A stretch of DNA of 64,000 nt from a bacterium (GTDB lineage: Bacteria; Patescibacteriota; Dojkabacteria; JAKAPS01; JAJZLI01): the NCBI GenBank assembly GCA_021785355.1, contig JAJYFR010000004.1:7184-71183 (forward strand), written 5' to 3'. Positions 15,541 through 58,306 of the stretch are shown piece after piece (position 1 is the stretch's first letter; every line of letters starts with the position of its first letter). A program made the translations under genes and the position numbers. A model generated the notes under the pieces. The model was not told the origin of the DNA and made no database searches. It saw nothing but the letters and a program-made list of their open reading frames with translations.

Positions 15541-15634
15541 TAATTAAGCTTATCAGTTTTACCTTTATAAGTAAATTATATTTAAGTTTTTGTGTTATAT
15601 AAATCAATTTGAAAACAAGAAAAATACAAAGGGT

Positions 15635-15664: not shown

Positions 15665-15696
15665 ATTGGCAGTTACGTTAAAAGTTTGCTAAACAT

Positions 15697-35031: not shown

Positions 35032-35059
35032 ATTTAATATCTTACATTATTTTTTGAGT

Positions 35060-36926: not shown

Positions 36927-36927
36927 T

Positions 36928-37416: not shown

Positions 37417-37867
37417 TATTATTAATGTTTAAATTTATAGAATAAAAATTTCCTCCAAGTGTAAAAGAAATTCCATTATTTGTAAGTTGTCCTGTTACGT
37501 TATTGAAAATTATAGGATTATTGTCTGTAGGAGAAAGGTTGCTAATACTTACACCTGGGGGTAGAGTATATGAATTATTTAGTGAATTTGTAGAGGAGTA
37601 AGTATTTCCTGGAAATTCAGTAACCTGATTATTTTGAAAATATACTCCATATTGAGAATAATTATCAAGATTATTAATTGCATTATCTTGAGCTTGTTTT
37701 ATTAAAGAGTATATTGTTTGGTTAGCAGAATTAACATTAGAACGATTAAGAAATGATATATAAGATATAGAGACCATGGATACTATTGTAAGGAGGATTG
37801 CCATAGTTATTAATATTTCAATTAGGGTAAAACCTTTATTTTTAAACATATTATTTAGATCCTGCAA
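37400..37867 (-). CDS. Type IV pilin-like protein
   Basis: N-terminus NKGFTLIEILITMAILLTIVSMV (G|FTLIE). Confidence 0.75.
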   Translation of the reverse strand: MQDLNNMFKNKGFTLIEILITMAILLTIVSMVSISYISFLNRSNVNSANQTIYSLIKQAQDNAINNLDNYSQYGVYFQNNQVTEFPGNTYSSTNSLNNSYTLPPGVSISNLSPTDNNPIIFNNVTGQLTNNGISFTLGGNFYSINLNINNNGAVY

Positions 37868-42485: not shown

Positions 42486-44139
42486 CTCTTAATACTTCTT
42501 CAATAGAAGTTATACCTTCTATTGCTTTTGCCAGACCATCTTCAACCATTAAACTCATTCCTTTTTCTTGTGCCATTTTTTGTATTTCTTCTGAAGTAGC
42601 TTTATGTGTTATAAGAGATTTCATTTCGTCATCTACTTGTAGTATTTCATAAATACCTATTCTTCCTTTATATCCATTAGTACAGTATTCACAACCTACA
42701 GCTTGATAAAATTTAGTATTGGTTATTTTCTTATCGACACCTTTCTTTTTATATTGTTCTTCTAATATTTTTAATACTTTACTGTCCATGGAATATTCTT
42801 TTTTGCATGTATTACATAATTTTCTAACTAATCTTTGCGCAATTACAACATTAAGAGTAGATGCAACCAAAAATGATTCTATTTGCATATCTATTAATCT
42901 AGGGATTGCTCCTGATGCATCATTTGTATGGAGAGTAGATAAAACTAAATGTCCTGTCATAGCTGCATTTATAGATATATCTGCAGTTTCATTGTCTCTT
43001 ATTTCTCCTACCATTATAATATCAGGGTCTTGTCTTAAAAAAGATCTTAAACCACTTGCAAAAGTAAGCCCAATAGAAGTATTAACTTGTGTCTGATTTA
43101 CTCTAGGCATGCTGTACTCAATAGGATCCTCTATTGTATCAAGATTAACCTCTGGTGTATTTAACTGAGAGAGAATAGTATAGAGTGTTGTACTTTTTCC
43201 TGAACCTGTTGGTCCTGTTACAAGAATCATTCCCACAGTTCTTTTGATAGAATCTTTTATTATTTCTAAATCTCTTCCTCTAAATCCTAAAGCTTCAAGG
43301 TTATATGATTTTGCATTATCTTCTAATAATCTTGCTACTAAAACCTCTCCAAAATATACTGGCATTATTGATATTCTGAAAGAGATAAATTGATTATCTA
43401 TACTAATTTTAAATCTACCATCCTGAGGAAGTCTATGTTCATCTATTTTCAAATTAGAAAGTATTTTAATTCTGGCTATTACAGCTTTATGTATATCTAT
43501 AGAATAAGTAGCTTGGTCATGTAATATCCCATCAATTCTATATCGTATTATTGCTTTTTCTTCTAAAGGTTCTATATGAATATCTGAAGCTCCCATTGTT
43601 TTTGCATATTCCAGTATAGTATCTGTTATATTAATTATAGGGAGAGCTTCTGCATCTTCTCCTTTTAAACCTTTTGTTTCTTTTTCATTTTTTTCAATTA
43701 TATTTTTCAACTCTTCTTTTATTGAGGTCTTATACATCTTTAGTCCCTCAAAAAAAGACTTTTCTGTTATAAAATAAGGATCAATAATATATCCTGTTCC
43801 TTTCTTTATGAATTCTAAAGTGTTTATATCTCTAGGATTAGTCATTCCTATTTTTAGCTCAGAAGGAGTTTTTTCAAATGCAATTATCTTTTTTTCAATT
43901 GCAATTTTTTCAGGAATAATTTTTACAGTATCAGGATCAATACTTTTATGTATTAGTGATATATGAGGTATTGAAAATTCTTCTGTAACAAGTTCTCCTA
44001 ATTTATCTTCTGTTATTATGTTTCTACCTATAATAAGTTCTTCAATTGAACTTCCAATCTGTTTTGACTTATCTTCGAGCTTTTCATACTCTTCATTCGA
44101 GATATATTTATTTTTTATTAATAATTCTTTTAAATCCAT
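42472..44139 (-). CDS. pilB: Type IV pilus assembly ATPase PilB (GspE family)
   Basis: N-terminal GSPII_E_N-like domain, Walker A MILVTGPTGSGKSTTLY, Asp/His boxes, Walker B IIMVGEIRD, and a tetracysteine motif (CNTCKKEY...CEYCTNGYKGR); 555 aa. Confidence 0.9.
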   Translation of the reverse strand: MDLKELLIKNKYISNEEYEKLEDKSKQIGSSIEELIIGRNIITEDKLGELVTEEFSIPHISLIHKSIDPDTVKIIPEKIAIEKKIIAFEKTPSELKIGMTNPRDINTLEFIKKGTGYIIDPYFITEKSFFEGLKMYKTSIKEELKNIIEKNEKETKGLKGEDAEALPIINITDTILEYAKTMGASDIHIEPLEEKAIIRYRIDGILHDQATYSIDIHKAVIARIKILSNLKIDEHRLPQDGRFKISIDNQFISFRISIMPVYFGEVLVARLLEDNAKSYNLEALGFRGRDLEIIKDSIKRTVGMILVTGPTGSGKSTTLYTILSQLNTPEVNLDTIEDPIEYSMPRVNQTQVNTSIGLTFASGLRSFLRQDPDIIMVGEIRDNETADISINAAMTGHLVLSTLHTNDASGAIPRLIDMQIESFLVASTLNVVIAQRLVRKLCNTCKKEYSMDSKVLKILEEQYKKKGVDKKITNTKFYQAVGCEYCTNGYKGRIGIYEILQVDDEMKSLITHKATSEEIQKMAQEKGMSLMVEDGLAKAIEGITSIEEVLRVIKE

Positions 44140-45543: not shown

Positions 45544-46404
45544 TTATATACTATTCATATATTCCTTCAATTCTCTCCATAAAACAGGGTCATCTTTAGC
45601 ATATTCAATAGTAGTTTTTAAAAAATTTAAAGGATCACCTGTTGTTAACCATTTACCTTCTATTTTTGTTGCAAGAACAGAACCTTGTTTTGTGAACTTT
45701 GAAATAGCATCAATTAGCCATAATTCATTATTTTTTCCCAATACTTTTTTGTCTAATTCCTCTACTACATCTCTGTTTAATATATATCTTCCAAAAGAGA
45801 CATGGCTTGACATAATATTTTCAATACTAGGTTTTTCTATTATTTGATCTACAGTAATACCATCTTCTTTGAATTTTATATTACTATATTTTACAATTTC
45901 TTCTTTTGGTAATTCTTGAGTAGCTAATATTATTTTTTTAGGGTGTTTATAACTAAATTCTATTAATTGTTTTGTTGCAGGAACTGTAGCTTTCACAATA
46001 TCATCTCCAAACATATATATAAAATTTTCCTCATCTTTAATTAAATTTTTTGCAACTAAAAGAGGTGTACCATTTCCATAAGGAAGATGTTTCTTTTGTC
46101 TAACATATATATAATTAGCTTTCTTAGGTAAATCTTTTAATTCTTTGAGTAGTTCTAATTTTCCACTTTCTTCTAAATGAAATTCTAAATCTATATTATT
46201 ATCAAAATGGCTTTCTAGAGTATATTGACCTCTTGTTACCATTATTATGTCTTTAATTCCAGAGTCAATAAGTTCCTCCACTAGGTATTGGATAATAGGT
46301 TTGTTTATAATAGGAAGCATTTCCTTTGGTTGTACTTTTGTTGCAGGTAAAAACCTCGTTCCATAGCCAGCTAGGGCTATTACAGCTTTAGTTATTTTAT
46401 TCAT
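45544..46404 (-). CDS. galU: UTP--glucose-1-phosphate uridylyltransferase
   Basis: AVIALAGYGTRFLPATKVQPKEMLPIINKPIIQYLVEE (G-x-G-T-R-x-LPxTK signature), 286 aa. Confidence 0.9.
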   Translation of the reverse strand: MNKITKAVIALAGYGTRFLPATKVQPKEMLPIINKPIIQYLVEELIDSGIKDIIMVTRGQYTLESHFDNNIDLEFHLEESGKLELLKELKDLPKKANYIYVRQKKHLPYGNGTPLLVAKNLIKDEENFIYMFGDDIVKATVPATKQLIEFSYKHPKKIILATQELPKEEIVKYSNIKFKEDGITVDQIIEKPSIENIMSSHVSFGRYILNRDVVEELDKKVLGKNNELWLIDAISKFTKQGSVLATKIEGKWLTTGDPLNFLKTTIEYAKDDPVLWRELKEYMNSI

Positions 46405-46501: not shown

Positions 46502-48439
46502 ATGGAAGGTCAAAATAACGAGCATGCAATACCTCAAAATATAATGAGCGTGGAGTTCAAGTTAATAGGGGATCTAACGATTAAACAGTTTGTTTTTGTT
46601 GCTATACCTTTACTACTTGGATTTCTGATGTTCGTTTTTAAAGTTAATAATTATATAACTTTAGTATTCACGGGTATCTTTTTATTAGCAGCTTTATTTA
46701 TAGATTTTATTCCTCTTGATGATAGACCTCTAGATGAGTGGATAATAAATTTTATAATTGCAGTGAAAAATCCTACACAAAGAATATGGGGAAAGAAACC
46801 TTCGTACCCCAATATTTTAAGAATTCCTAAAGCTATAATGCCAAAAGTTAAGAAAAATGAGGATGTAGCTACATTTCTCTATCAATCTCCTTTAGATACA
46901 AGTATACAAAGTTCGAGTGGTAATAGTGCTACAAAAATTTTAGATGATAAAGAAAAAAATTTTATGTCAAATATAGATAATATAAATGATTCTTTAGGAG
47001 ATAATGTCTCAATAAATGCAGGAGGAAGGCCTGTTATTTCTCCTGCTTTTAATATTCCTACAAGTAATAATTTTCAAAATAATCCTACAAAAGAAGATGT
47101 ATCAAGTAATACAAATCCTACAGAGAATGTACCTTTTACAACAGGAGATAATAGTAAGAATAAAGATGATAATTTACTTTCATCTAGAATAGGCAATGAA
47201 GATCCTAAAAATTTTTATAAACCTGAAAAGCTATATACTGAAGAAAGGGAAGAAGATTCTTCTGATGTAAAGAAAACAATACCATCAGTTGATGCCTCAA
47301 GTATGAACGCCAATCCTTTTTTTTCTCAAGATAATCCTTTTGGTCTTATTAATACAGGAAACCACGTTAACCCTGTACCTCAGCAAAGTAATGAAAGTTT
47401 CTCTACTGTACCTTCCACACCTGAGATTAAAGATGAAAATCCTAATTTAGATAAGGCAGATAAAATTGAGGATACTTCTTTTAGAGAAGGAGGTGTAAAT
47501 ATATTAGATCTATCTTCTCAAATGGATAGTGTTGAGGGTATTACAATTCCATCTGTTAATGAAAGTATTTCGAATCCATATGACAATGCTACTGTGGCAA
47601 CTCCTATTGATATTACAAAAGATTCTCCACCACAAGAAGAGACAGTGGAGCCTCAAATCTCAAATGTGTCTGAGAATGACAATATAGCTCCAACCCAAAT
47701 AGATAATGCACCTGTTGATGAAAGTATTAATCCATATGACAATGCTACTGTGGCAACTCCTATTGATATTGCAAAAGATACTCCACCACAAGAAGAGATA
47801 GTTGAACCTCAAATCTCAAATGTATCTGAGAATGATAATATAGCTCAGACCCAAATAGATAATGTACCTGTTGATGAAAGTATTAATCCATATGACAATG
47901 CTACTGTGGCAACTCCTATTGATATTGCAAAAGATACCTCACCACAAGAAGAGACAGTTGAACCTCAAATCTCAAATGTTATAAATAAGAGTCCAGAGAG
48001 TAATAACGAAATGAACGAAATGTTGGAAAGGTTGAAAAAGTTAGAGGAAGAAAATTCATCCTTAAAAAAGGCATTAGAAACAACATCAAGTACTCCTTCT
48101 CCTCAAAATACTAATTCTTCAATAAATAGCAATTTTGATATAAATGATTTTAAAAAATATCTTCCTGAATTTGTAAATAACCCTAATGTTATAGCAGGAG
48201 TATTAGTAGATAGCCAAGGAAATATCATTCAAGATGCAGTTATAATAATAAAAGATTCTTCTCAAAAACCTATTAGAGCTATAAAAAGTAATCAACTTGG
48301 ACAATTTTTTATTAGAACTCCATTACCTGATGGAAATTATACACTTGAAGTTACACATCCAAAGTTTGCATTTGAAAGTACTGGGGTGGACTTGACGGGT
48401 GTGATAAAAGAACCTATATTAATATATTCTAAGACTTAA
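46502..48439 (+). CDS. Membrane-anchored surface protein with tandem 52-aa repeats and C-terminal CarboxypepD_reg-like beta-sandwich domain
   Basis: 645 aa with two N-terminal TM helices and a Ser/Asn/Pro-rich region. A 52-aa unit (NPYDNATVATPIDI[TA]KD[ST]PPQEE[TI]VEPQISNVSENDNIA.TQIDN.PVDESI) occurs 2.6 times, followed by a coiled coil (EMLERLKKLEEENSSLKKALE). The C-terminus VIAGVLVDSQGNIIQDAVIIIKDSS...GQFFIRTPLPDGNYTLEVTHPKFAF matches the carboxypeptidase-regulatory-like pattern. Confidence 0.6.
   Translation: MEGQNNEHAIPQNIMSVEFKLIGDLTIKQFVFVAIPLLLGFLMFVFKVNNYITLVFTGIFLLAALFIDFIPLDDRPLDEWIINFIIAVKNPTQRIWGKKPSYPNILRIPKAIMPKVKKNEDVATFLYQSPLDTSIQSSSGNSATKILDDKEKNFMSNIDNINDSLGDNVSINAGGRPVISPAFNIPTSNNFQNNPTKEDVSSNTNPTENVPFTTGDNSKNKDDNLLSSRIGNEDPKNFYKPEKLYTEEREEDSSDVKKTIPSVDASSMNANPFFSQDNPFGLINTGNHVNPVPQQSNESFSTVPSTPEIKDENPNLDKADKIEDTSFREGGVNILDLSSQMDSVEGITIPSVNESISNPYDNATVATPIDITKDSPPQEETVEPQISNVSENDNIAPTQIDNAPVDESINPYDNATVATPIDIAKDTPPQEEIVEPQISNVSENDNIAQTQIDNVPVDESINPYDNATVATPIDIAKDTSPQEETVEPQISNVINKSPESNNEMNEMLERLKKLEEENSSLKKALETTSSTPSPQNTNSSINSNFDINDFKKYLPEFVNNPNVIAGVLVDSQGNIIQDAVIIIKDSSQKPIRAIKSNQLGQFFIRTPLPDGNYTLEVTHPKFAFESTGVDLTGVIKEPILIYSKT
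47574..47980. repeat. Tandem direct repeat, 156-bp unit x approx 2.6 copies (approx 93% identical), coding
   Basis: Units start at 47574, 47729 and 47885 (AATCCATATGACAATGCTACTGTGGCAACTCCTATTGATATT...). Differences between copies are mostly synonymous or conservative. Confidence 0.85.
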
Positions 48440-48442: not shown

Positions 48443-49111
48443 ATGCAAAAAAATACACGTATTGTAGCTACAACTCAAGATCATCTAAGTATAGAAGATA
48501 TAAAGGATAATTTTGTTGTACTTAAAAATGGAAATGTATCTGTTGTTATAGAAACTTCTGCTGTAAATTTCTATCTTCTCTCAGAGGTTGAACAGAGTTC
48601 TAAGATATATGCTTTTGCTGGGTTGCTTAACTCTTTAGGTTTTTATATACAGGTTATGATTCACACAGAAAATGTTGATATATCTGCATATCTTAAACAT
48701 ATAGATGAATATAAAGTAAAAGAAAAGGATCCTAAAATTAAATATCAGATAGATATATATAGAAAATTTGTAAAAGACCTTATTGTTAAGAATAATGTTT
48801 TAGATAAACATTTTTATATAGTTATACCTTATATGACTCAAATGCCTAAAAAACCTGGTTTTATAGATAAATTTATGAAAAAAGATTCAGCACCATCTTT
48901 TGATGTAGATCAATTAATACTTCAAGCTTCATCGAGACTTTTGCCAAGGAGAGATCATGTAATAAGGCAACTTTCAAGGATGGGATTAAAATCAAAGCAG
49001 TTAGATAGTTCAGATTTGATAAAACTTTTTTATAATATCTATAATCCTGCAAATTCTAAAATAAGAAGAAATTTCGATGAATATACTTCTCCAATAGTTA
49101 GTTCTCAATAA
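48443..49111 (+). CDS. Hypothetical protein paired with VirB4-like ATPase (possible split-off VirB4 N-terminal domain)
   Basis: 222 aa ending 2 nt before the ATPase gene. The N-terminal region (DHLSIEDIKDNFVVLKNGNVSVVIE...LLNSLGFYIQVMIH) is similar to ORF 56152..56670 (DILGIEEDLIILKNSVYSKIFEI...FLISLKIDIQFIAI), which likewise precedes the second VirB4-like gene. Confidence 0.45.
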   Translation: MQKNTRIVATTQDHLSIEDIKDNFVVLKNGNVSVVIETSAVNFYLLSEVEQSSKIYAFAGLLNSLGFYIQVMIHTENVDISAYLKHIDEYKVKEKDPKIKYQIDIYRKFVKDLIVKNNVLDKHFYIVIPYMTQMPKKPGFIDKFMKKDSAPSFDVDQLILQASSRLLPRRDHVIRQLSRMGLKSKQLDSSDLIKLFYNIYNPANSKIRRNFDEYTSPIVSSQ

Positions 49112-49113: not shown

Positions 49114-51126
49114 ATGAAAATACCACAAATACTTATAAAAAAAGAAGAGAAAACAAATGAAGTACAACAGCCTATACAGGAAGTTTCTCCTAATAGTAAT
49201 ATAGATCCTACTTCTTTGTTTGGAATGGGCATGAATAGTATTAAGGATATAATAGCACCTTCTTCTCTAGAGGTGGATTTTTCTTATGTTAAGATAGGAG
49301 ATAAATATTATAAAACATATTTTGTATTAGCTTATCCTAGGTATGTTGTTCCTAATTGGCTTTCTCCATTAATAACATTTGAACATTCTATTGATATAAG
49401 TATGTTCTATTATCCTATTAGTGCAGCAGCAGTACTTTCTCAATTAAGAAAGAAAATTGCGGAAATGGAAGCAAGTACAAATAATTTGATTGAATCTGGA
49501 AAAGTAATGGATCCTAATTTAAAAGTTGCGCTTTCAGATGCAAAAGAATTACAAGAAAACTTAGCAAAGGGTTCAGAGAGATATTTTCATTTTGCCTTAT
49601 ATGTCACAGTTAGAGCAGATACAGAGGAAGAATTATCTGATATATCAAAGAATCTTGAATCTACTATGGGGGCAATGTCTTTAATAATCAAACCTACTAC
49701 TCTCCAGATGGAGGAAGGTTTTCTTTCAACATTACCAACTTCTAGCGATAACCTATATTATACTCATAATATGGATACAACTTCTATTGCGACTACATTT
49801 CCTTTTGTATCCTCGGAGTTAACTTCAGATAACGGTGTTTTATATGGGATAAATAAAGCAAATAAGAGTCTTGTTGTATTTGATAGATTTGAATTAGAAA
49901 ATGCAAATTCTGTAATTTTTGCAAAATCTGGAGCAGGAAAAAGTTACTTAGTAAAATTAGAAGCTCTTCGTTCATTAATGTTAGGAACACAAATAATAAT
50001 AATAGATCCAGAGAGTGAATATTTTACTTTATGTAAAGCTTTAAATGGGGCTTATGTTACATTTTCTCAAGATGGTAATTCAAAGATAAATCCATTTGAT
50101 CTTTCTGGTATTTATGAAGAGGGGGAGGATGAATTAAGGTTTAAAATACTTTCTTTACACGGATTGTTTAAGGTTATGTTAGGGGATGAAGGTGGTATTA
50201 GTAGTATGGAAAATGCAATTTTAGATAAGGCTTTAATTTTAACATATAGAGATAAAGGGATAACTTTTGATCCAGAAACTCAAGTGAAAGCGCCTCCTTT
50301 AATGGAAGATTTATATAAAATATTACTTTCTATGGAAGAGGCTGAAGCTCATTCTCTTGCTCAAAGATTAGAAAAATATGTAAAAGGGTCTGCTTCTGGA
50401 ATTTTTGATCAACAAACTAATATAGATCTAAATAATAATTTCATGGTCTTTTCCATAAAAGATTTATCAGATGAATTAAGACCTGTAGCTATGTTTTTAA
50501 TGTTAGATTTCATATGGACAAGAGTAAAAAGAGATTTAAGAAAAAGAATTTTTATAATAGATGAAGCTTGGATGTTAATGAAATATCCTGACTCTGCACA
50601 ATTTGTATATGCTGTAGCAAAGAGAGCTAGAAAATATTATCTAGGGCTTACTACAGTGTCTCAAGATGTTGATGATTTTATCTCAAATGAATATGGTAAA
50701 GCTGTTGTAACAAATTCTTCAATTCAAATTCTTTTAAGGCAGTCTCCTACGGCAATAGATCATTTATCTGAAGTATTTTATCTTTCTGCTGGAGAAAAAA
50801 ATCTTCTTTTGAGTGCAGATGTTGGGGAAGGAATCTTTTTTGTTGGAACAAATCATGTTGCAATACAGATACTTTCAAGTGAGTATGAAAATAGACTTAT
50901 AACAACAAATCCTGAAGAAATTTTAAAAATGCAGCAAGATGCATCTTCTTTAGGAAGGATAGTTCCTAATAATTTTGTAAATTCAAATTTTGATAGTAAC
51001 GATAATACTAAATTATTTCAAAGTGATATGATAAATATGAATAAGGAAGAGACAGGAGAAGTTTCTAAAGATGAAGAAGATTCAACCTTATCTCAAAATT
51101 CTAGTACAGAAGGAATAGTTAATTAA
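49114..51126 (+). CDS. VirB4/TraC/TrbE-family conjugation/T4SS ATPase (FtsK-HerA superfamily), copy 1
   Basis: Walker A VIFAKSGAGKSYLVK, downstream IIIDPESEY motif, Walker B RKRIFIIDEAWMLM, and later VSQDVDDF; 670 aa; N-terminal region YYKTYFVLAYPRYV shared with copy 2 (YFKTYYVAEYPSEV). Confidence 0.7.
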   Translation: MKIPQILIKKEEKTNEVQQPIQEVSPNSNIDPTSLFGMGMNSIKDIIAPSSLEVDFSYVKIGDKYYKTYFVLAYPRYVVPNWLSPLITFEHSIDISMFYYPISAAAVLSQLRKKIAEMEASTNNLIESGKVMDPNLKVALSDAKELQENLAKGSERYFHFALYVTVRADTEEELSDISKNLESTMGAMSLIIKPTTLQMEEGFLSTLPTSSDNLYYTHNMDTTSIATTFPFVSSELTSDNGVLYGINKANKSLVVFDRFELENANSVIFAKSGAGKSYLVKLEALRSLMLGTQIIIIDPESEYFTLCKALNGAYVTFSQDGNSKINPFDLSGIYEEGEDELRFKILSLHGLFKVMLGDEGGISSMENAILDKALILTYRDKGITFDPETQVKAPPLMEDLYKILLSMEEAEAHSLAQRLEKYVKGSASGIFDQQTNIDLNNNFMVFSIKDLSDELRPVAMFLMLDFIWTRVKRDLRKRIFIIDEAWMLMKYPDSAQFVYAVAKRARKYYLGLTTVSQDVDDFISNEYGKAVVTNSSIQILLRQSPTAIDHLSEVFYLSAGEKNLLLSADVGEGIFFVGTNHVAIQILSSEYENRLITTNPEEILKMQQDASSLGRIVPNNFVNSNFDSNDNTKLFQSDMINMNKEETGEVSKDEEDSTLSQNSSTEGIVN

Positions 51127-51319: not shown

Positions 51320-51625
51320 ATGAATACTAAAAATTTAGATAATTATATAGACCAATTAGTAGTAGATAAAGGTTTTGATTTAGGTAATGTTGATTTAGTA
51401 AAAAGGGTTAAAGATGAGTTATATGATCTTGTAGAAGATGCTATAAACTCAGAGATAGTAAATAAATTATCTCAAGATAAAATATCTGAATTTGAAAAGT
51501 TATTTAATAACAATGTTTCTGACGAAGTTGTGGTATCTTTTCTCAAATCAAATATAGAAAATTTAGATCAAGTAATAGAATCAGTTTTATTAAATTTTAG
51601 AAATATATATTTAGATAATAATTAA
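51320..51625 (+). CDS. Small acidic hypothetical protein (101 aa)
   Basis: Complete ORF downstream of a consensus promoter, 2 nt before the 996-aa ORF. Confidence 0.45.
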   Translation: MNTKNLDNYIDQLVVDKGFDLGNVDLVKRVKDELYDLVEDAINSEIVNKLSQDKISEFEKLFNNNVSDEVVVSFLKSNIENLDQVIESVLLNFRNIYLDNN

Positions 51626-51627
51626 TT

Positions 51628-54618
51628 ATGGATATAAAAACAGAGGAACAGCAATCTTTAATAGTACAAGAAGTAGAGGACAGTATAAAAGATTTTGAAG
51701 TTATATTATCAGCAGAAGAAATTATTAATGAATATTTATATAAATTATCTTTAGGAGAAGAAGAAGATAGAGGTGATGAAAATAAGGTCTCTGTAGATGA
51801 AGGTTTAAATGAAACTGATACAACAAAAGATTTGCTTATTAAGAGGGATGAAAATAAAAATCCAAAAGTTTTGAATGAAGATGATCTTCTAAATATACAT
51901 ATTGTTGATATTAGTGATCAAACAAAAAGAAGAGCACATGACAATGCAAGAGAACAATTAACTGAAGAAAAAAATAAATTAACAGGAGTTGGTGGCATAG
52001 CAAAAAAATTAGGTAGATATGGATACTTTGAAGGTACAACTTATCAAAGATATAAAAAACAAGCACTTATAGAAGAATTATTAAAAGATACAGATGGTAA
52101 GACAGCAGAAAGATTTGAAGCAGGAAGCATTAGAACAGAGAGAAATACAGAGATAAGTGTTAAAGCTGCAGAAAGTGAAGAAGAAAAAACTTTGAAAGAA
52201 TTAATAATTAGTATGGCTAAAGGTGAAATTGAAGAAAGTGAATATATTGAATTAAAAAGGAAATTAATATCTGAATTATTTATTTCATCTTCTTTGAAAG
52301 AAAGTAAGAATACTGATTTTGAAAAATTTGAAGATAATATAGATAAATATATAGACCAAATTAAAGTATTAATAGATCATGGTAAAACAGTTGAAGATAT
52401 AAGAGATTTAATAACCTTAAACCTAGGTATAGCAAAAGATTTATCAATTACAAGAGTTGAATATAGTAAAACTGATAAAGTTTTAGAAGGTTTAAAAAGG
52501 CACAAAATTGCAGGGAAATTAGTTAATGAAACTGTTTTTGCAACAGGTGGATCTGTTTTAGGCAGAGTAGCTTTTAGCATAGCTTCTTCTAGAGCTGCAA
52601 CAATTGCTAGTTTTGGAGGAGCTGCTGTTGTAAGTTCTCTACTTTCAGCAGCTAAAGAAAAGCAAAGAATAAAAAGAGATAGGCAAATGCAGATTAGAGA
52701 TTATTCCGCAGGAAGATCAAATGGATTAGAAGGTAAAAGAAGAGAACAACTTCAGAGAACTGTATATGATTTAATGCCTATAAAAGATTCTTTTAATGAC
52801 CTTGTAGAATCATTTGATAAATTTAATAAAAGTATAGAGGGAGATAAGATTTCTTTTGAAAAGATGTTAAAAATAATTGGAGAGTATAGAGCAAGAAGGA
52901 TTGTATCTTTAGCTAGTGATATAGATCTATTTATATATTCTTCTTCAGAGAATATGCAAGAAGAGTTTAGTGACCTAGACTGGTATGTAAGATATGTTCA
53001 ATCTAAAATGCAAATATCAGAAAATCAAGATAAAATAAAATCAATATTGGGTGTTGATGATATTGATATAGAAGGTTTAATAGGGGAACAAATCGAAGAA
53101 TCTGTTAAAAATATTGAAGAAGATATTTCTCAAAAAGATTCAATATTTAGAGGTGTAAAATCTGCAAGAATAGGTAGATATGTAGCTTGGAATCTAGTAA
53201 CAGGACTTACAATAGGAGCTTTAGGACAAGGTGTAGTAAGAGAATTAATGGAGAAGCATGAAGAATTATTGAAAAATGGTGTTATAAAACAAGATTTTCT
53301 AGAAGGTCTTTTGAATAAATGGAATCAAGTAAAAATAAAGAAAACTACTTATATGCATAGTCCTAAAATAGCACTTAGATCAAAAGGTCGTGTTGGGGAA
53401 ATTTTTATGAATGGTAAAAAAATCCAAGAGGTTAAATTAAATAAAAATGGAAGCCTTACTTCAAGTTCAATTCAAACTTTACAACAAAAAGGAATAGGAG
53501 TTAAAACTAGTACCGTTTATACAAGTTCTGGGGGAGAAGTTATGCGTAATAATAGTATAGTTGCTGGCAATACAAATGTTCAAAGAAATCTTTGGTATGA
53601 CAATAATAATGCGCAAGGAGTATATACTAAGAATGAATTAGGTATATGGTGGGGTTCTAATACTGGATATAATAGTAAAGGAGATGTAGTTTTCAATATT
53701 GCTAGTATGACAAACAAAGGTTCATATCAAGGAAATTCTTCTGTGGCAATACAAAATCTTATTGAAGAAGGAAAAATGAAAATCTGGATTACTGCTAGTA
53801 GATCTACTCAAAATAAAGCATATGTATTTAATGTGAATAGAAATGGTTTAGTAAATATAGATAAAAATTCTTTAGCATATAGATTATTCTCAAAAAGTAG
53901 TACAGGTCATGTTAAATTCAATGGTGCATTTGTTGAAGCTGTAGTTCCTCAAGCAACAACAAAACTAGGAACTCATATAGGAGATCCAGTTGCAACTTAT
54001 GTAGGTTCAAATACAGCTAATCCTATTATAAATAAAGAGACAATTACTACACTTTTTGAAAAGCCTACAAGATATATTAAACCAAAAACTCAAATAGGAT
54101 GGCCTTGGTTTATACCTGTTGTAGGAAGAACTCCTTTAGAAAAAGCAGAAATTAATTCTAATCAAGAAAATTCAGAAATACCTGGAAACTCATTGGCAAA
54201 ATCAAGAGAAGTAAACGATTTTAATCTTATAGGTGATATTGGAAGTATTAATAGTAGTACAGATGAAGATATAAGAGGACTTTTTAATGAACTTTATATT
54301 AATGACAAAGAAGAAAGTAAAGTTTCTAGAGTAACAAAAAGAGAGCAAGCTAGGTATGCTATATCAATGATTAAAGATTATTTTAAAGTTATGTCAGCAG
54401 AAGAAATAAAATTATTAAATGAATATTTAAAGAAACGTAAAATGAATAAAGATAAGTATGAGAATGAAAGAAAAGATCTATTTTCTGAGAATTTTCTACT
54501 TCAAGAATATGATACTTTTAAATCTAGATTTGAAAATGATGAGGCTTTCAGATTGGATGTTTTAAGAAAATGGGCAGAAGTGCATCTCTACTATATTAAT
54601 AATAAAGGTTCTATATAA
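51628..54618 (+). CDS. Large hypothetical membrane-associated protein (996 aa) of the T4SS-like locus
   Basis: Acidic coiled-coil-rich N-terminus; hydrophobic Gly/Ala/Ser-rich segments around residues 300-340 (GGSVLGRVAFSIASSRAATIASFGGAAVVSSLLSAA) and about 530 (VAWNLVTGLTIGALGQGVV); Asn/Gly/Ser/Thr-rich C-terminal approx 450 aa suggestive of an extracytoplasmic beta-rich domain. No ATPase or peptidase motif. Confidence 0.55.
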   Translation: MDIKTEEQQSLIVQEVEDSIKDFEVILSAEEIINEYLYKLSLGEEEDRGDENKVSVDEGLNETDTTKDLLIKRDENKNPKVLNEDDLLNIHIVDISDQTKRRAHDNAREQLTEEKNKLTGVGGIAKKLGRYGYFEGTTYQRYKKQALIEELLKDTDGKTAERFEAGSIRTERNTEISVKAAESEEEKTLKELIISMAKGEIEESEYIELKRKLISELFISSSLKESKNTDFEKFEDNIDKYIDQIKVLIDHGKTVEDIRDLITLNLGIAKDLSITRVEYSKTDKVLEGLKRHKIAGKLVNETVFATGGSVLGRVAFSIASSRAATIASFGGAAVVSSLLSAAKEKQRIKRDRQMQIRDYSAGRSNGLEGKRREQLQRTVYDLMPIKDSFNDLVESFDKFNKSIEGDKISFEKMLKIIGEYRARRIVSLASDIDLFIYSSSENMQEEFSDLDWYVRYVQSKMQISENQDKIKSILGVDDIDIEGLIGEQIEESVKNIEEDISQKDSIFRGVKSARIGRYVAWNLVTGLTIGALGQGVVRELMEKHEELLKNGVIKQDFLEGLLNKWNQVKIKKTTYMHSPKIALRSKGRVGEIFMNGKKIQEVKLNKNGSLTSSSIQTLQQKGIGVKTSTVYTSSGGEVMRNNSIVAGNTNVQRNLWYDNNNAQGVYTKNELGIWWGSNTGYNSKGDVVFNIASMTNKGSYQGNSSVAIQNLIEEGKMKIWITASRSTQNKAYVFNVNRNGLVNIDKNSLAYRLFSKSSTGHVKFNGAFVEAVVPQATTKLGTHIGDPVATYVGSNTANPIINKETITTLFEKPTRYIKPKTQIGWPWFIPVVGRTPLEKAEINSNQENSEIPGNSLAKSREVNDFNLIGDIGSINSSTDEDIRGLFNELYINDKEESKVSRVTKREQARYAISMIKDYFKVMSAEEIKLLNEYLKKRKMNKDKYENERKDLFSENFLLQEYDTFKSRFENDEAFRLDVLRKWAEVHLYYINNKGSI

Positions 54619-54714
54619 AAATCTTTGTTCATTTAACAATAAAAATGTTGCTATTAATAGAAAATTTAAGGTATTTTGATTTTATTTTATAAAACTTTTA
54701 AAATACTTTAAATT

Positions 54715-54957
54715 ATGCAACAGATTCCGGGACTAAATCAATTTGTTAATAATATAGCAGGTGTAATGATAACCACAGTAGAAACAGTCCTTATATTAAT
54801 AGTAATAGCATTTGGTATCCAGTTTATAATGTACTCCGATAATCCTCAAGAAAGATCTAGATTGATTAGAAGAATAATTTGGGTTTTAGTAGGACTTTTT
54901 ATCGTTATAGGTGCTCAAAATTTTACTACATTTCTACATGCGATTATTGGCGGTTAG
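54715..54957 (+). CDS. Small 2-TM protein, VirB2/TrbC pilin-like candidate
   Basis: 80 aa with two hydrophobic helices separated by a short polar loop (…VETVLILIVIAFGIQFIMYSDNPQERSRLIRRIIWVLVGLFIVIGA…); immediately upstream of the VirB6-like gene. Confidence 0.35.
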   Translation: MQQIPGLNQFVNNIAGVMITTVETVLILIVIAFGIQFIMYSDNPQERSRLIRRIIWVLVGLFIVIGAQNFTTFLHAIIGG

Positions 54958-55876
54958 TCTAATATTAATATTTCTTTTTTCAAGACCTGTATTTGCTCAA
55001 GGTACAAATTCTAATATTCTCAATTGCAATTCATCAATTTCTTTTTCCATAGATGGAGTTATGTGTTCTTTGGGGTATATAATAGATCAATTTACAGAAT
55101 TTACTCCTAATATTTTATCTAATAATGGATATGGAGGAAGTCTTGCAGGGATAGCTTTTAATCAATATACCCAAGGCACTGAGTATATTGCGTTTGCAAT
55201 AATACCGATACTTATATATTTATATATACTTAATTTTTTAGGTGAAGTATCTTTAGGTAAAACAGGTTTATCTCCACAGGATTTAATGTATAGTATTTTT
55301 ATGTCTGTATTAATATTAATACTTTCTCCTTATATTTTATCTATGCTTATAACATTTATTAATGTATTAGATAAATTTATAATTATTCATATTATACACT
55401 CATCTAATCCTAGTTTATTTCAAACAATTATTAATTCAATGAATCTTAGTAATTTTAATTCAGGTATATTTTCAGGCATAATTAATTATATTTTATACAT
55501 TCTTCTTATTATTGTTCTGTTTTTATTTTCATTTCAATTTATATTAAGATTTATTTTACTTTGGATATTAATACTTTTCTTTCCTTTTGGAGTTGCTTTG
55601 TCTATATACCCTCCATTTGGAAATATTCTAGGATCTATTCTGTCTAAAATTATGCAATTATTATTTATTCAACCTGCTTTTTTAATAGGTATATCTATTT
55701 TTATATTAATAGTTAATAATTTCTCTATTAATGTAGTTGAGAAATTTATCATCTCAATAGTTACATTATTCTCATTAGCGTTAATCCCTAATTTACTTAC
55801 AAGATATCTTAATTTTTCTTTTTCATTTGGACAAAGAAATATAAGGAGTATATTGAAATATGGATACAAAAGATAG
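54938..55876 (+). CDS. VirB6/TrbL-like polytopic membrane protein (paralog of 4467..6020)
   Basis: Probable start at ATG 54938 giving signal peptide MRLLAVSLILIFLFSRPVFAQG (the ORF track's 54911 start is in the same frame). Cys-containing ectodomain with FTEFTPNILSNNGYGGSLAGIAFNQYTQ, then at least six TM helices. Confidence 0.45.
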   Translation: MRLLAVSLILIFLFSRPVFAQGTNSNILNCNSSISFSIDGVMCSLGYIIDQFTEFTPNILSNNGYGGSLAGIAFNQYTQGTEYIAFAIIPILIYLYILNFLGEVSLGKTGLSPQDLMYSIFMSVLILILSPYILSMLITFINVLDKFIIIHIIHSSNPSLFQTIINSMNLSNFNSGIFSGIINYILYILLIIVLFLFSFQFILRFILLWILILFFPFGVALSIYPPFGNILGSILSKIMQLLFIQPAFLIGISIFILIVNNFSINVVEKFIISIVTLFSLALIPNLLTRYLNFSFSFGQRNIRSILKYGYKR

Positions 55877-56159
55877 TTGTAAAGTTTATAAAATAAAAAA
55901 TTTACATTCAGGTTATATTAATATAACTAACAATGTTTTAATATTTCTTTTCTCTATTATACCCATACTTTTTATCATATTTAGCCCTATTATTATTCAA
56001 TTAAAAATATTTTTATCTTCTTTTATTGTTATGACATTTTATGTTTTATTTAAACAAGAATATAAAGGTAATGTTTTATATTTGTATATATATTTTTTCA
56101 TTCTTTTTATGAAGAAAAAGAAAAAGTATTATTTTGAAGAGGAAAGTATAGATGTATAA
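55860..56159 (+). CDS. Small hydrophobic hypothetical protein (99 aa)
   Basis: Two TM helices; overlaps both flanking genes (operonic). Confidence 0.35.
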   Translation: MDTKDSCKVYKIKNLHSGYINITNNVLIFLFSIIPILFIIFSPIIIQLKIFLSSFIVMTFYVLFKQEYKGNVLYLYIYFFILFMKKKKKYYFEEESIDV

Positions 56160-56670
56160 TATAAAAAATTTTTATGACATATTAGGTATAGAAGAAGATT
56201 TAATAATTTTAAAAAATTCTGTATATTCTAAGATTTTTGAAATATTTCCTGACAATTTTATACTTTCTGATATAGAAGAAAGATATTCTTTTATAAAAAA
56301 ATATGAAGAGTTTTTAATATCTTTAAAAATAGATATTCAGTTTATTGCTATAAATTTTAAATTACCTCAAAAGGAGAATTTAAAATATTTATCTAATATA
56401 AAGGATAAAAAGTTTAATATGTTATATAAAGAGGCTTTATTAAATAAGGATAATGAAGTTCTTAGAAATTTATTTAATCAGAGATTTTTTTTAATACACT
56501 CTGTAAATAAAAAAAGAAAACATCTTGATTATCAAAAAGATTTATTAGAGGTTAAAAGTGTATTTTCTTCACAAGAAAAACAATTAAGATATATGTTATC
56601 TCAAATTCCTTTATCTTTCAAAAAAATGAATAAATCGGAGATAATTAAAATTTTAAAATTTTTTAGTTAA
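56152..56670 (+). CDS. Hypothetical protein paired with VirB4-like ATPase copy 2 (homolog of 48443..49111)
   Basis: 172 aa, ends 4 nt before the ATPase gene; see the similarity noted for 48443..49111. Confidence 0.45.
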   Translation: MYNIKNFYDILGIEEDLIILKNSVYSKIFEIFPDNFILSDIEERYSFIKKYEEFLISLKIDIQFIAINFKLPQKENLKYLSNIKDKKFNMLYKEALLNKDNEVLRNLFNQRFFLIHSVNKKRKHLDYQKDLLEVKSVFSSQEKQLRYMLSQIPLSFKKMNKSEIIKILKFFS

Positions 56671-56674
56671 AGTT

Positions 56675-58306
56675 ATGAAAATTCTTTATAAAAATAAACA
56701 AGATAAGATTTTCCCTAAAAAGATTGAAGAAAAGCCTTCTTTTATAAAGGTAAATAATAAGTATTTTAAAACTTATTATGTTGCAGAGTATCCTTCTGAA
56801 GTGTACAGTTTCTTTCTTTCAGACATATTTTCATTGGGAGGTAATATAATGGTCACTCAATATTTAAAAGCTGTAAAAAAAGATCAAATACTTAATTCTA
56901 TAAAAATGAAATTATCTGCCATTGAAGCCCAAAGACATTCTCGTTTCAAAAAAGGAAAGTTAAATGATATTACTTTAGATCTAGAAGTCTCAAATCTGGA
57001 GGATTTTAGAAGAATTCTTGTTTCTTCAAAAGAAACGAGTTTATCTTTTGGTTTTTATTTAACTTTATATTCTAAAAATTTATATAGATTAAAATCTTTA
57101 TCAAAAAATTTAGAACTACTTCTTTCTTCTAAATCTTTTAATATATATTCTCTAGATTTTAGACAAGATGCTGGGTATAAAACAATATTACCTTTTAATT
57201 TAAATATATCTTCGAAATCTTTTATTTTAAATACCAAATCTGTAGCATATATGACTCCTTTTGTTCTTAGTAACTATACTGATTATAGTGGTGTTATTTA
57301 TGGGGTAAATTCACTGACAAATTCAATGTTAATTTTTGATATATTTAAATATGAAAATTATAATGGTGTTGTTTTTGCCAAATCAGGTTCTGGAAAGAGT
57401 TTTTTTGCCAAAATAAATATAATAAGGTCACTTTCTAAAGGTATAAAGGTAGTTGTAATAGATCCAGAAGGAGAATATAAGGATCTATGTAAAAATTTAA
57501 AAGGTAAATATATTGATCTTTCTCATAAATCAAAAAATCATATAAATCCTTTTGATTTATATGAAGGAGAAAGTATTGATGAAAAAATACAATTCATAAA
57601 AAGTTTTTTACGAAAGACATGTACGTATTTCGATTCAAATGAAATAGATAAAGCTTTAATTGAGATTTTTAGAGATTTTAAGAATCCTACATTTGTAGAT
57701 TTATATAATTTTTTAGAGAAAAAGAATAGTAGAATGGCTCTAGAAATATTTAATATATCAAAAGGATCAAATTCAAATCTATATTCAAATGAAAGTAATA
57801 TTAAACTTTCATCTAAAGATAATCTAATAGTATTTGATATATCTTCACTAGATAGTTATAACATATCTTTAATGATGCATGTAGTGCTTAATTTTATTTG
57901 GAAATTTCATCAAAGACAAGATAAAAGATTAGTTTTTATAGATGAAGCTCATAGATTATTTGAGAATGAGGATTTGTTAAGTTATCTTAAAATGGTATCA
58001 AAAAGAGCAAGGAAATATAACTTAGGATTGATATATATAACTCAAGATATTGAAGATTTTATATCTTCAGAAGAAGGTAGGTCAATAATAGCAAATACAT
58101 CATTGAAGGTTTTAATGAAGCAAGAAAAGGTAAATGTAGAAAAGATAGGAAAAACATTTATGCTATCTTCTGAAGAAAAGGAAGCTTTATTAAAATTTTC
58201 ATTAGGAGAATCCTTGATACTTTTTGGAGATTTAAGAGTATATAATAAAGTCTTTGCTTTTGAATTTGAGGAAAAGATTTTTAATAAAAGGCAGGAGATT
58301 CCATAG
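56675..58306 (+). CDS. VirB4/TraC/TrbE-family conjugation/T4SS ATPase, copy 2 (shorter paralog)
   Basis: Walker A VVFAKSGSGKSFFAK, VVVIDPEGEY, Walker B KRLVFIDEAHRLF, ITQDIEDF; 543 aa. Confidence 0.7.
   Translation: MKILYKNKQDKIFPKKIEEKPSFIKVNNKYFKTYYVAEYPSEVYSFFLSDIFSLGGNIMVTQYLKAVKKDQILNSIKMKLSAIEAQRHSRFKKGKLNDITLDLEVSNLEDFRRILVSSKETSLSFGFYLTLYSKNLYRLKSLSKNLELLLSSKSFNIYSLDFRQDAGYKTILPFNLNISSKSFILNTKSVAYMTPFVLSNYTDYSGVIYGVNSLTNSMLIFDIFKYENYNGVVFAKSGSGKSFFAKINIIRSLSKGIKVVVIDPEGEYKDLCKNLKGKYIDLSHKSKNHINPFDLYEGESIDEKIQFIKSFLRKTCTYFDSNEIDKALIEIFRDFKNPTFVDLYNFLEKKNSRMALEIFNISKGSNSNLYSNESNIKLSSKDNLIVFDISSLDSYNISLMMHVVLNFIWKFHQRQDKRLVFIDEAHRLFENEDLLSYLKMVSKRARKYNLGLIYITQDIEDFISSEEGRSIIANTSLKVLMKQEKVNVEKIGKTFMLSSEEKEALLKFSLGESLILFGDLRVYNKVFAFEFEEKIFNKRQEIP

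Follow-up and report, generated by a model that had tools for sequence, protein, structure and literature searches.

Organization of the T4SS locus

The window analyzed here, a 64-kb stretch of DNA considered at its full length, comes from an ultrasmall (Patescibacteria) bacterium and carries a T4SS locus on its + strand in the order prgI-like, trsD-like and virB4, followed further along by a pilin gene, a polytopic VirB6-like candidate and a virD4-like gene. The first gene of this locus (positions 46502..48439, +; ORF list) encodes a 645-aa protein that combines a PrgI/VirB3-like hairpin (PF12666), a predicted disordered linker, a coiled coil and a beta-sandwich (PF13620). A preliminary description of this DNA had placed the gene beside a T4SS-like locus, and the gene in fact heads it.

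The second gene (48443..49111, +) encodes a 222-aa TrsD-like, or VirB4 N-terminal-domain-like, protein with no TM segment by hydropathy; the assignment draws on a weak precomputed TraC-like match (PF26593) and on two NCBIfam models, TrsD at 29.7 bits and VirB4_plasma over positions 101-233, both far under their cut-offs. The third (49114..51126, +) encodes a 670-aa VirB4-like ATPase, likewise with no TM segment, which matches PF19044 (E 6e-28), AAA_10 and DUF87, with TraC_F_IV and CagE_TrbE_VirB just under their cut-offs. The remainder of the locus (51320..58306, +), annotated from TM counts and from Pfam matches precomputed for L001 and L002, two loci of 99.9% identity, comprises a DUF5663 protein (101 aa), a 996-aa soluble protein, a VirB2-like pilin (54715-54957, +), the VirB6-like candidate (54938-55876, +), which is named from its membrane topology (TM count) only and has no family match, proteins of 99 and 172 aa, and a VirD4-like P-loop protein (56675-58306, +). 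Neither the 996-aa nor the 312-aa protein of the locus has a Pfam match. The same gene order is repeated in the related loci L086-L092. Cultivated Saccharibacteria require their T4SS to grow as epibionts (PMC12102498, PMC12857230).

Domain layout of the 645-aa protein

The N-terminus of the protein is a PrgI (VirB3-like) domain (aa 10-85; 46529..46756, +), recognized from PF12666 and from family alignments, with the invariant N-terminal motif H8/P11-Q12-N13/M15/F19/I22-G23. As a single sequence it scores 24.3 bits against PF12666, under the gathering cut-off of 27; a profile of the family N-domain, however, retrieved 88 stand-alone proteins, all of them previously annotated as PF12666, with E-values down to 1e-42, and most full-length relatives have a precomputed PF12666 match. 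A scan of GTDB species representatives did not return the source species, and the nearest relatives in it are only ~54% identical in the conserved N-domain.

Within this domain lies a hairpin of two TM helices (aa 27-70; 46580..46711, +; hydropathy and AF2) joined by a loop of ~5 residues (KVNNY), and these are the only TM-like segments of the protein, the maximum KD19 beyond aa 100 being 1.23. The same two-TM hairpin, with a loop of 3-9 aa, is found by hydropathy in 71/71 family members surveyed, and in just three of these 71 is it followed by another hydrophobic segment exceeding KD19 1.6 (up to 1.93). The hairpin is followed by a conserved helix (aa 77-96; 46730..46789, +), predicted by AF2 as helices 77-89 and 91-96, in which D78, F84 and P91-T92 are invariant and which matches the C-terminal helix of VirB3 (anatomy in PMC12857230). 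The AF2 model of the N-terminal region has helices at 27-45, 50-67 and 77-96, with pLDDT of 80-85 over the hairpin; its mean pLDDT of 63.8 is low. Foldseek against the PDB, where VirB3 is represented by structures such as 7O41 (TrwM), found nothing at E < 4, but the model is of too little confidence for the VirB3 fold to be judged from it. PDB sequence searches with the N- and C-terminal profiles likewise returned nothing significant. A second family-conserved helix (aa 142-167; 46925..47002, +; AF2), with an LDxxEK motif and an invariant E151, ends the part that stays with PrgI where the protein is split; in L086 and L087, the 174-aa PrgI proteins carry this motif at their C-terminal end.

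Beyond this helix the protein continues as an acidic, N/S/P/D-rich linker of ~330 aa (aa 166-496; 46997..47989, +) that is predicted to be disordered from charge-hydropathy and composition. Its length and sequence vary across the family, no column being conserved in a 25-sequence alignment, and the fused proteins of the family have lengths of 328-873 aa. The linker gives way to a conserved coiled-coil helix (aa 500-528; 47999..48085, +; residues 14-42 of an AF2 model of aa 487-645), whose consensus motif IxxLExENxxL is found in all close relatives, and the protein closes with a seven-strand beta-sandwich of transthyretin/CarboxypepD_reg/CnaB-like type (aa 565-643; 48194..48430, +). The sandwich matches PF13620 (CarboxypepD_reg) over aa 564-631 at 34.3 bits (cut-off 32.3), is modeled by AF2 as seven strands with pLDDT of 94-98, and is closest in the PDB to carboxypeptidase N/D/M C-terminal domains, CnaB2, pilins and SdrD B (Foldseek, E 1e-4 to 1e-3 over these matches and 1e-4 to 4e-3 over the carboxypeptidase domains). 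The anchored protein ending in a carboxypeptidase-regulatory-like beta-sandwich that had been proposed from the sequence is therefore borne out by the Pfam, AF2 and Foldseek results and by the TM hairpin.

The N-terminus, a polar conserved PrgI motif, is no signal peptide; the first hydrophobic segment begins at ~aa 27 and is part of the hairpin. Similarly, the C-terminus has neither LPXTG nor another wall anchor, the protein ending in KEPILIYSKT straight after the last beta-strand. At 645 aa, with ~550 aa beyond the hairpin, the protein falls outside the small size (10-15 kDa) by which PrgI/VirB3 proteins are recognized (PMC12857230).

A tandem array in the linker

Tandem Repeats Finder detected an array at 47553-47979 with a period of 156 bp, 2.7 copies, 93% matches, 1% indels and a score of 736. 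Every other array in the 64-kb window scores 84 or less, and the 156-bp array is thus its sole strong tandem repeat. It lies in frame within the 645-aa ORF (46502-48439, +) and is a genuine in-frame duplication. The ORF list contains no minus-strand ORF of 60 aa or more over this gene, and Rfam and tRNA scans of the 64-kb window returned nothing, so the array overlaps no RNA gene.

With the unit register taken from Val, unit 1 (aa 352-404; 47555..47713, +) has 53 aa, one extra Ser codon included, unit 2 (aa 405-456; 47714..47869, +) has 52 aa, and the partial unit 3 (aa 457-493; 47870..47980, +) has 37 aa, its similarity to the others stopping ~15 residues ahead of the coiled coil. Nucleotide identity is 92.9% between units 1 and 2 (11/156 positions differ), 96.4% between units 2 and 3 (4/111) and 92.8% between units 1 and 3. 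The preliminary description, which had recognized two full and one partial 52-aa unit of 156 bp at ~93% identity, is confirmed on these points; its coordinates (47574-47980) began ~20 nt late and were otherwise right. A 32-nt core (pattern AATCC...ACTCC) is unchanged in all three units, and an amino-acid core, NPYDNATVATPIDI, is invariant. Units 2 and 3 additionally have a 72-nt tract in common (47710..47781, +, equal to 47866-47937 of unit 3).

Synonymous divergence is 0.085-0.18 among the units vs ~0.0015 among strains, and the expansion, which had been called recent, is recent in a relative sense only. The dN/dS ratio among units is ~0.3, from tiny counts of 2-6 changes per class. This comparison, earlier proposed as a check, gives no sign of diversifying selection on the units, and the same ratio, with the same tiny counts, faintly suggests that the sequence of the unit is under some constraint and might not serve purely as inert spacing. 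Searches for the 52-aa unit or its core elsewhere in the protein and in the linkers of 12 relatives yielded compositional, low-scoring matches and no homologue, and scans of JGI metagenomes with the exact 32-nt core and with a back-translated NPYDNATVATPIDI pattern gave 0 matches each.

Copy number among alleles and relatives

The identical 645-aa protein (P0001) is encoded on 16 contigs, whose flanks carry SNPs; in independently assembled contigs from several samples (L002-L005) the array is equal base for base. This allele occurs, among others, in ERZ27237444, ERZ27233562, ERZ27236914 and GCA_021785705.1. With 16 contigs from several samples sharing it, the array does not stem from an error in a single assembly. 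A shorter allele, P0002 of L001 (GCA_027424935.1), encodes 593 aa and has exactly one 52-aa unit fewer, being otherwise identical (593/593) in a genome of 99.85% identity (31 SNPs across 21.8 kb). In the alignment, its remaining unit begins with the unit-2 marker GCA and continues with the unit-3 markers ACC, TCA and ACA, i.e., unit 2 is lost by way of a unit-2/unit-3 hybrid, and the deletion junction falls within the 72-nt tract common to both units. This tract would be the interval of a crossover or, equally, of a graph collapse: judged from the sequences, recombination and assembly collapse fit the loss equally well, and collapse during assembly may account for the shorter allele because a graph loop arises wherever k < 72. 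Copy-number polymorphism within the source species is accordingly unproven on these alleles, the shorter one being the sole exception to 16 contigs that all have 2.7 copies. In either case, loss of one 156-bp unit (52 codons) keeps the frame and leaves the rest of the protein unchanged; phase variation by frameshift, as at contingency loci with simple-sequence repeats, was rejected on the same ground, the unit being 52 codons long.

Repeats also occur in the linkers of relatives. In a sister lineage the same linker contains an unrelated 21-aa (63-bp) repeat at 2.5, 4.5 and at least 7.5 copies (P0004-6, P0009, L008), and outside this repeat P0004 and P0009 differ at 7/537 aligned residues. The linker of L012 contains a 159-bp x2 duplication, which is absent from its relative L010. 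The idea that copy number varies is supported by the 593-aa allele and the 21-aa repeat, with the caveat that the allele junction equals that of a de Bruijn-graph collapse. As for homologous repeat proteins in relatives, which the same idea had led one to expect, no homologue of the unit itself was found in the 12 relatives searched; independent repeats occur in the same linker of related lineages. For short-read assemblies, the array is a reminder that units may be wrongly counted.

The tail module as a fused or separate gene

The coiled coil and beta-sandwich form a module with 2451 representatives at 50% identity (E <= 1e-3). In L086, L087, L089, L091 and L092, this tail is an ORF of its own, directly behind a short prgI and ahead of the trsD-like gene and virB4; in L087 the tail ORF has a Shine-Dalgarno sequence and a TAG-ATG junction, and in L089 prgI and tail are separated by two in-frame stops. 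An apparent split in L090 was dropped as evidence because a 10-N scaffold gap lies between the two ORFs. The order prgI - tail - trsD - virB4 held in every locus examined, in WWE3, Woykebacteria, Dojkabacteria and other MAGs.

A local hmmsearch showed that PrgI is absent from 67 of the best 150 tail-module representatives, and at least 17 of these 67 are complete proteins of 529-1035 aa with an N-terminal motif of the form YPGKPLxHRFxPTExPR in common. These complete stand-alone tails (at least 17) have no signal peptide or TM segment, no hydrophobic stretch exceeding KD17 1.45 outside the sandwich. Two giant matches, P0150 and P0157, are generic multi-CarboxypepD_reg proteins and were excluded from the family. 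We found no mention of the tail module in the T4SS literature searched and no NCBIfam model for it; the module looks undescribed so far and is a candidate lineage-specific T4SS subunit. It is tentatively possible that, fused to or neighboring prgI, it is an unrecognized, Patescibacteria-wide cytoplasmic T4SS component tethered to VirB3, a reading more likely than that of an adhesin on an inverted hairpin. The composition of these systems past VirB3, VirB4, VirB6, TrsD and pilins is poorly known, and the carrier protein is more useful in this respect than the repeat.

Membrane side of the linker and tail

VirB3 homologues have two TM helices with N- and C-termini both cytoplasmic (PMC12857230; PMC12624023, 'IM/cyto'), and the hairpin has the same architecture. 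The family is characterized by 1:1 binding to the VirB4 N-terminal domain with the termini in the cytoplasm, an arrangement to which, for the 645-aa protein, the stand-alone tails free of export signals lend indirect support only. Because VirB3 termini are cytoplasmic and stand-alone tails have no signal peptide or TM segment, we read the tail as cytoplasmic: homology and gene fission indicate that linker and tail most likely lie beside the soluble TrsD-like protein and VirB4, and not at the cell surface. Charge-based topology rules were set aside as contradictory, K+R counts around the hairpin favoring termini inside and net charge (loop +0.85 vs C-flank -1.6) favoring the opposite orientation.

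The preliminary description had instead spoken of a surface protein, of its extracellular part and of a host-facing or phage-exposed role, terms that are not upheld for a PrgI/VirB3 homologue with two TM helices whose tail also exists as a separate protein with no signal peptide or TM segment. A tail outside the cell, with the hairpin opposite to that of VirB3, the linker crossing the wall, the sandwich acting as an adhesin or host-contact element and copy number under host or phage pressure, nevertheless has points in its favor and is to be weighed as an unlikely alternative. The closest folds of the sandwich are mostly extracellular or cell-surface domains (carboxypeptidase C-domains, CnaB, pilins, MSCRAMM B domains, SlaB; Foldseek), which also speaks against cytoplasmic placement, and around TM2 it is the loop side that carries the more positive net charge. 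Wall-spanning, variable linkers rich in P/S/T/N/D, with near-identical repeats, are common in surface proteins of monoderms. Moreover, a clear VirB8 is missing from the Patescibacteria T4SS, whose outer parts are unknown (PMC12102498). Against these points, the protein lacks a signal peptide and has just two TM helices, and its homology is to PrgI/VirB3, the termini of which are cytoplasmic and bind the cytoplasmic VirB4 (PMC12857230). In addition, its tail occurs without an export signal as a stand-alone protein in many lineages, its C-terminus has no wall anchor, and a dN/dS of ~0.3, together with one protein shared by 16 contigs with SNP-bearing flanks, gives no sign of diversifying selection. 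The more specific picture of a hairpin inverted relative to canonical VirB3, with the 550-residue tail as an extracellular stalk that bears its CnaB/transthyretin-like head through the epibiont wall to the host, appears improbable. If true, it would make the protein the first T4SS inner-membrane subunit to double as a surface adhesin, and the tandem repeat a spacer whose length varies in response to pressure from hosts or phages.

Proposed role of the repeat

We consider it probable, with the tail placed in the cytoplasm as argued above, that the array is a lineage-specific tandem duplication in the predicted-disordered linker of a PrgI/VirB3-tail fusion, where it lengthens a flexible, probably cytoplasmic tether. 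By analogy with PrgI/VirB3, the hairpin would belong to the subunit at which the VirB4 ATPase is docked to the cytoplasmic membrane. Units may be gained or lost through unequal recombination or replication slippage between near-identical units, each event adding or removing 52 residues of flexible spacer and leaving the folded parts untouched, and such changes in length would be tolerated because the linker acts solely as a tether. The repeat would then tune the reach of this tether, of which there would be six per machine if VirB3 stoichiometry holds, and would form no antigenic or host-facing surface. As an ordinary product of unequal recombination, it would chiefly mark how unconstrained the linker is.

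The units might instead be functional binding modules, each with a short linear motif (for example, the NPYDNATVATPIDI core) for a substrate, a VirD4-like protein or VirB4, with duplication raising valency. We regard this as rather improbable: the dN/dS of ~0.3, the core and the 72-nt stretch left identical between units, and the position of the array directly before the conserved coiled coil are what such modules might leave behind, but the substitution counts are too small for a meaningful dN/dS, a counterpart of unit or core turned up neither elsewhere in the protein nor in the linkers of its nearest relatives or the JGI metagenomes scanned, and a motif essential to the T4SS would be expected to be conserved across a family of >2000 representatives. 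That a single-copy segment was duplicated in error during assembly to give the array is highly improbable, for although short-read metagenome assemblies can mis-handle repeats and the L001 assembly has one unit fewer, the units differ at 4-11 diagnostic substitutions and one codon indel and are therefore not the same reads copied, their longest identical tract (72 nt) is shorter than the k of 141 suggested by the k141_ names of several ENA contigs, the identical 645-aa protein comes from different samples and submitters, and assemblers collapse repeats more than they expand them.

Comparison with known systems

Surface repeats of monoderms (Rib/alpha C, MSCRAMM B/Cna_B, SD) resemble the linker duplication proposed here in being in-frame, long and near-identical; they differ in copy number between strains, as the linker array may, and the C-terminal domain described here has a CnaB/transthyretin-like fold. 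In contrast to them, the 645-aa protein has no signal peptide, sortase motif or wall anchor, the topology evidence points to the cytoplasm, and the unit is predicted to be disordered and not a folded domain.

Closer in design are Escherichia coli ZipA and the FtsK linker, in which a membrane anchor is followed by a long, low-complexity, poorly conserved P/Q-rich linker and a globular cytoplasmic C-terminal domain. The likeness lies in the combination of anchor, variable flexible linker and globular C-terminal domain; the sequences are unrelated, and both belong to the divisome and not to a secretion system. We know of no near-identical long tandem units described in ZipA or FtsK linkers.

In VirB3-VirB4 fusions (Helicobacter pylori CagE, Campylobacter plasmids), as in the 645-aa protein, the C-terminus of the hairpin runs into further polypeptide of one machine, and these fusions are a precedent for a cytoplasmic VirB3 C-terminus (PMC12624023, PMC12102498). 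The partner here differs in consisting of a disordered linker, a coiled coil and a beta-sandwich and not of an ATPase, and a survey of Patescibacteria found no VirB3-VirB4 fusions (PMC12102498).

The nearest comparison is with PrgI/VirB3 itself (PF12666; pCF10 PrgI, R388 TrwM, Agrobacterium tumefaciens VirB3), homologues of which have been catalogued in Patescibacteria T4SS loci (PMC12102498). Known VirB3 homologues are proteins of 10-15 kDa with short cytoplasmic extensions (PMC12857230), whereas this one reaches 645 aa, its linker, coiled coil and beta-sandwich making up a tail of ~550 aa; its gene is separated from virB4 by a TrsD-like gene, and its single-sequence Pfam score lies just under the cut-off. 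Shared by both are the N-terminal motif, the two TM helices, the very short loop and the helix after them, as well as the position of the gene just upstream of the virB4 module in an MPF_FATA-like locus, and profiles link the fused protein to stand-alone PrgI.

Tandem Repeat in a PrgI-Like Protein

Tandem Repeats Finder detected an array at 47553-47979 with a period of 156 bp, 2.7 copies, 93% matches and a score of 736, the sole array scoring above 84 within the 64-kb window. It lies in frame with the ORF at 46502-48439 (+ strand, 645 aa), which bears out the near-identical 156-bp tandem coding repeat reported in the preliminary description, where the repeat was correctly characterized but its coordinates (47574-47980) began about 20 nt too late. 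The units, all on the + strand, span aa 352-404 (with one extra Ser codon), aa 405-456 and, as a partial copy, aa 457-493, with nucleotide identities of 92.9% (units 1 and 2), 96.4% (2 and 3) and 92.8% (1 and 3). As a feature the repeat is ordinary, and since the unit is 52 codons long a phase-variation switch is ruled out. We found no ORF of ≥60 aa on the opposite strand at this gene, and no RNA families or tRNAs in the window.

The protein comprises a membrane hairpin, a long linker, a coiled coil and a beta-sandwich. The Pfam PrgI match (aa 10-85) reaches 24.3 bits, slightly below the cut-off of 27; however, a profile of the N-domain alone recovered 88 stand-alone PF12666 proteins (best E-value 1e-42), which establishes the domain as a genuine PrgI/VirB3 homologue that agrees with that family in profile, two-TM hairpin and synteny but not in being a small protein. 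Hydropathy indicates exactly two TM helices at aa ~27-70, separated by a five-residue loop, and no segment after the hairpin hydrophobic enough for a third. AlphaFold2 modeling of aa 1-170 (mean pLDDT 63.8; hairpin 80-85) recovered the hairpin together with two further helices, one at 77-96 and a conserved one at 142-167, and modeling of aa 487-645 returned a long helix at aa 500-528, carrying the conserved IxxLExENxxL coiled coil, followed by a seven-strand beta-sandwich (pLDDT 94-98). The latter is a PF13620 member (CarboxypepD_reg, aa 564-631, 34.3 bits against a cut-off of 32.3), and among solved structures it most resembles the transthyretin-like C-domains of carboxypeptidases N, D and M, then CnaB2, Gram-positive pilins and SdrD B domains, with some cytoplasmic enzymes matching too. 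An anchored protein ending in a carboxypeptidase-regulatory-like beta-sandwich, as first proposed, is thus upheld by Pfam, hydropathy and AlphaFold2. The linker (aa 166-496, ~330 residues) is N/S/P/D-rich, net acidic and predicted from charge-hydropathy to be disordered, with no conserved columns across relatives; the repeat fills its last 142 residues and stops ~15 residues short of the coiled coil. An LPXTG-type surface protein is ruled out, there being neither signal peptide nor sorting signal.

Genomic Neighborhood

The gene is the first of a type IV secretion locus, confirming its claimed position beside a T4SS-like locus. It is followed by a TrsD-like/VirB4-N-domain-like protein (222 aa), VirB4 (670 aa), a DUF5663 protein, a soluble 996-aa protein without TM segments (51628-54618, + strand) that has no Pfam or NCBIfam match, a VirB2-like pilin (80 aa), a polytopic VirB6-like candidate, two small proteins and, finally, a VirD4-like P-loop protein. 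This is the Patescibacteria T4SS described previously as MPF_FATA-like and frequently origin-proximal, with widespread PrgI/VirB3, TrsD, VirB4, VirB6 and VirB2-like genes (PMC12102498). In the window, dnaA (8437-9771), dnaN (10081-11217) and a turn of GC skew from negative to positive near 8 kb place the replication origin ~37 kb from the locus, in agreement with that description (PMC12102498). GC content is ~27%, falling to 19-22% at 10000-16000, where a 662-aa ORF (13552-15540, - strand) has no Pfam match. A type IV pilus cluster, encoding a PilM/PilN fusion (534 aa), N_methyl pilins, PilC/T2SSF and PilB ATPase, and a GGDEF protein directly adjoin the T4SS locus upstream (33427-39086 and 42472-44139).

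Membrane Side of the Tail

The side of the membrane occupied by the tail, the portion after the hairpin domain, decides whether the protein is a surface stalk, as the preliminary description proposed. Most known examples of the beta-sandwich fold come from extracellular proteins, which favors a stalk and counts against a cytoplasmic tail; the charge statistics around the hairpin are equivocal. VirB3 homologues, however, have two TM helices and cytoplasmic N- and C-termini, clamp the cytoplasmic VirB4 and are fused to VirB4 in some systems (PMC12857230, PMC12624023, PMC12102498), and, by hydropathy, members of the present family lack a signal peptide and their TM helices are even in number. Moreover, in other Patescibacteria (loci L086, L087, L089, L091, and L092) the tail is a separate gene that sits exactly after a short prgI and before trsD-like/virB4. 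The split differs between loci, with a Shine-Dalgarno sequence and a TAG directly followed by ATG in L087 (Woykebacteria) and two in-frame stops at a different point in L089 (Dojkabacteria). No hydrophobic N-terminal segment occurs in the stand-alone tails of L086, L087, and L089 (maximum KD15 in the first 60 residues, -0.13 to 0.53). Among the best 150 of 2451 tail-module representatives, 78 carry a fused, complete PrgI domain, which is missing from 67; outside the sandwich, TM-like stretches are absent from all 67, of which at least 17 are complete proteins of 529-1035 aa sharing the N-terminal motif YPGKPLxHRFxPTExPR. Tails that function without an export signal are cytoplasmic by default, and since fusion partners share a compartment, the fused tail is likely cytoplasmic as well. 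A surface stalk is accordingly unlikely, and the claim of a surface, host-facing protein is probably wrong.

In stand-alone tails including P0186, P0189, P0194, P0211, and P0223 the motif takes the form (S)DLPxxPxxYPGKPLxHRFxPTExPR; it may be the peptide by which they dock to PrgI or VirB4 where a covalent link is lacking. Two unrelated split-type loci also carry a bAvd-like/23S_rRNA_IVP four-helix-bundle gene directly upstream of prgI (L087, 7536-7913; L092, 1332-1814). bAvd-like proteins accompany diversity-generating retroelements; no reverse transcriptase family is present among the genes listed for these two loci.

Origin and Variation of the Array

We lean toward the array having arisen by in-frame duplication, specific to this lineage, within a disordered tether that joins the hairpin to the coiled-coil and beta-sandwich module of a Patescibacteria T4SS. 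No counterpart of the 52-aa unit was found in relatives, which are ~54% identical in the conserved N-domain. That the units instead form a multivalent array of binding motifs appears doubtful. The suggested dN/dS comparison of units gave ~0.3 (Nei-Gojobori; dS 0.085-0.18, dN 0.024-0.051, from 2-6 changes per class), with no signal of diversifying selection, and as strain-level divergence is ~0.0015, the duplications long predate the strain diversity sampled. An assembly artefact, a possibility raised at the outset, is highly improbable, as diagnostic sites distinguish the units and the 2.7-copy form was recovered in multiple contigs, including k141_-named ones (names suggesting k=141 assembly).

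The identical 645-aa protein is encoded by 16 contigs, drawn from several samples in ENA and NCBI, and stays invariant while their flanks carry SNPs. One allele (P0002; locus L001, GCA_027424935.1) is 593 aa long and 593/593 identical to the window protein minus one 52-aa unit, and 31 SNPs over 21.8 kb mark L001 as a different strain or sample. Its remaining second unit begins with a unit-2 marker and continues with unit-3 markers, placing the breakpoint inside a 72-nt tract common to both units (47710-47781 and 47866-47937). This junction would be the exact product of unequal homologous recombination or slippage, and equally of a loop-skipping de Bruijn-graph assembler with k <72. Independent support for unit gain and loss in the same linker comes from a sister lineage with an unrelated 21-aa (63-bp) unit, present in 2.5 copies (P0004-6), 4.5 copies (P0009; near-identical to P0004 otherwise, with 7 mismatches) and at least 7.5 copies in the GTDB representative L008, where the array (6543-7026) enters a scaffold gap (N-run 6967-6976) and the called ORF is consequently only 368 aa. 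Similarly, L012 (MAS3.bin101) carries an independent 159-bp duplication (2.0 copies, 94%; 607-917, gene coordinates 606-916) in the same linker, and its close relative L010 has no equivalent. Long near-identical arrays are confined to these three lineages among 75 family genes scanned. The proposed copy-number variation is thus likely given the L001 allele and the sister-lineage series, although the L001 junction also fits assembly collapse. Separately, short contigs from different samples (L003-L005) share ends at window ~46304-46309 and 49989, and L003 diverges upstream of 45417, which suggests that strain-variable sequence around the prgI-trsD segment breaks assemblies.

Under the duplicated-tether reading, recombination or slippage between near-identical copies would add or remove units, which fits the L001 junction and the sister-lineage allelic series, and each added unit would contribute 52 more flexible residues with folded parts and frame unchanged. 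With fused proteins anywhere from 328 to 873 aa long, linker length is poorly constrained, and length changes are therefore tolerated and probably close to neutral. Collectively, repeat, anchor, fold and locus hold, and the preliminary interpretation is partly supported.

Distribution and Comparison with Known Systems

WWE3, Microgenomates, Daviesbacteria and other Patescibacteria share the PrgI and CarboxypepD_reg architecture, and GTDB species representatives contributed 197 confirmed loci, of which even the nearest is just ~54% identical. A C-terminal module profile matched 2451 cluster representatives at E ≤ 1e-3 and 227 at E ≤ 1e-30; its top matches, P0150 (3709 aa) and P0157 (3865 aa), are generic multi-domain proteins with 21-23 CarboxypepD_reg-like stretches and do not belong to the T4SS tail family. 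Our literature search returned no paper connecting the carboxypeptidase-regulatory-like domain with VirB3/PrgI, and NCBIfam has no model covering the fused protein or P0194, the one stand-alone tail scanned. This tail module, fused or adjacent to Patescibacteria VirB3, is a by-product of greater interest than the repeat. VirB3-VirB4 fusions, with the same attachment point as the tail of the window protein, are among the closest functional analogies, and membrane-anchored flexible tethers such as ZipA and FtsK may be as well.
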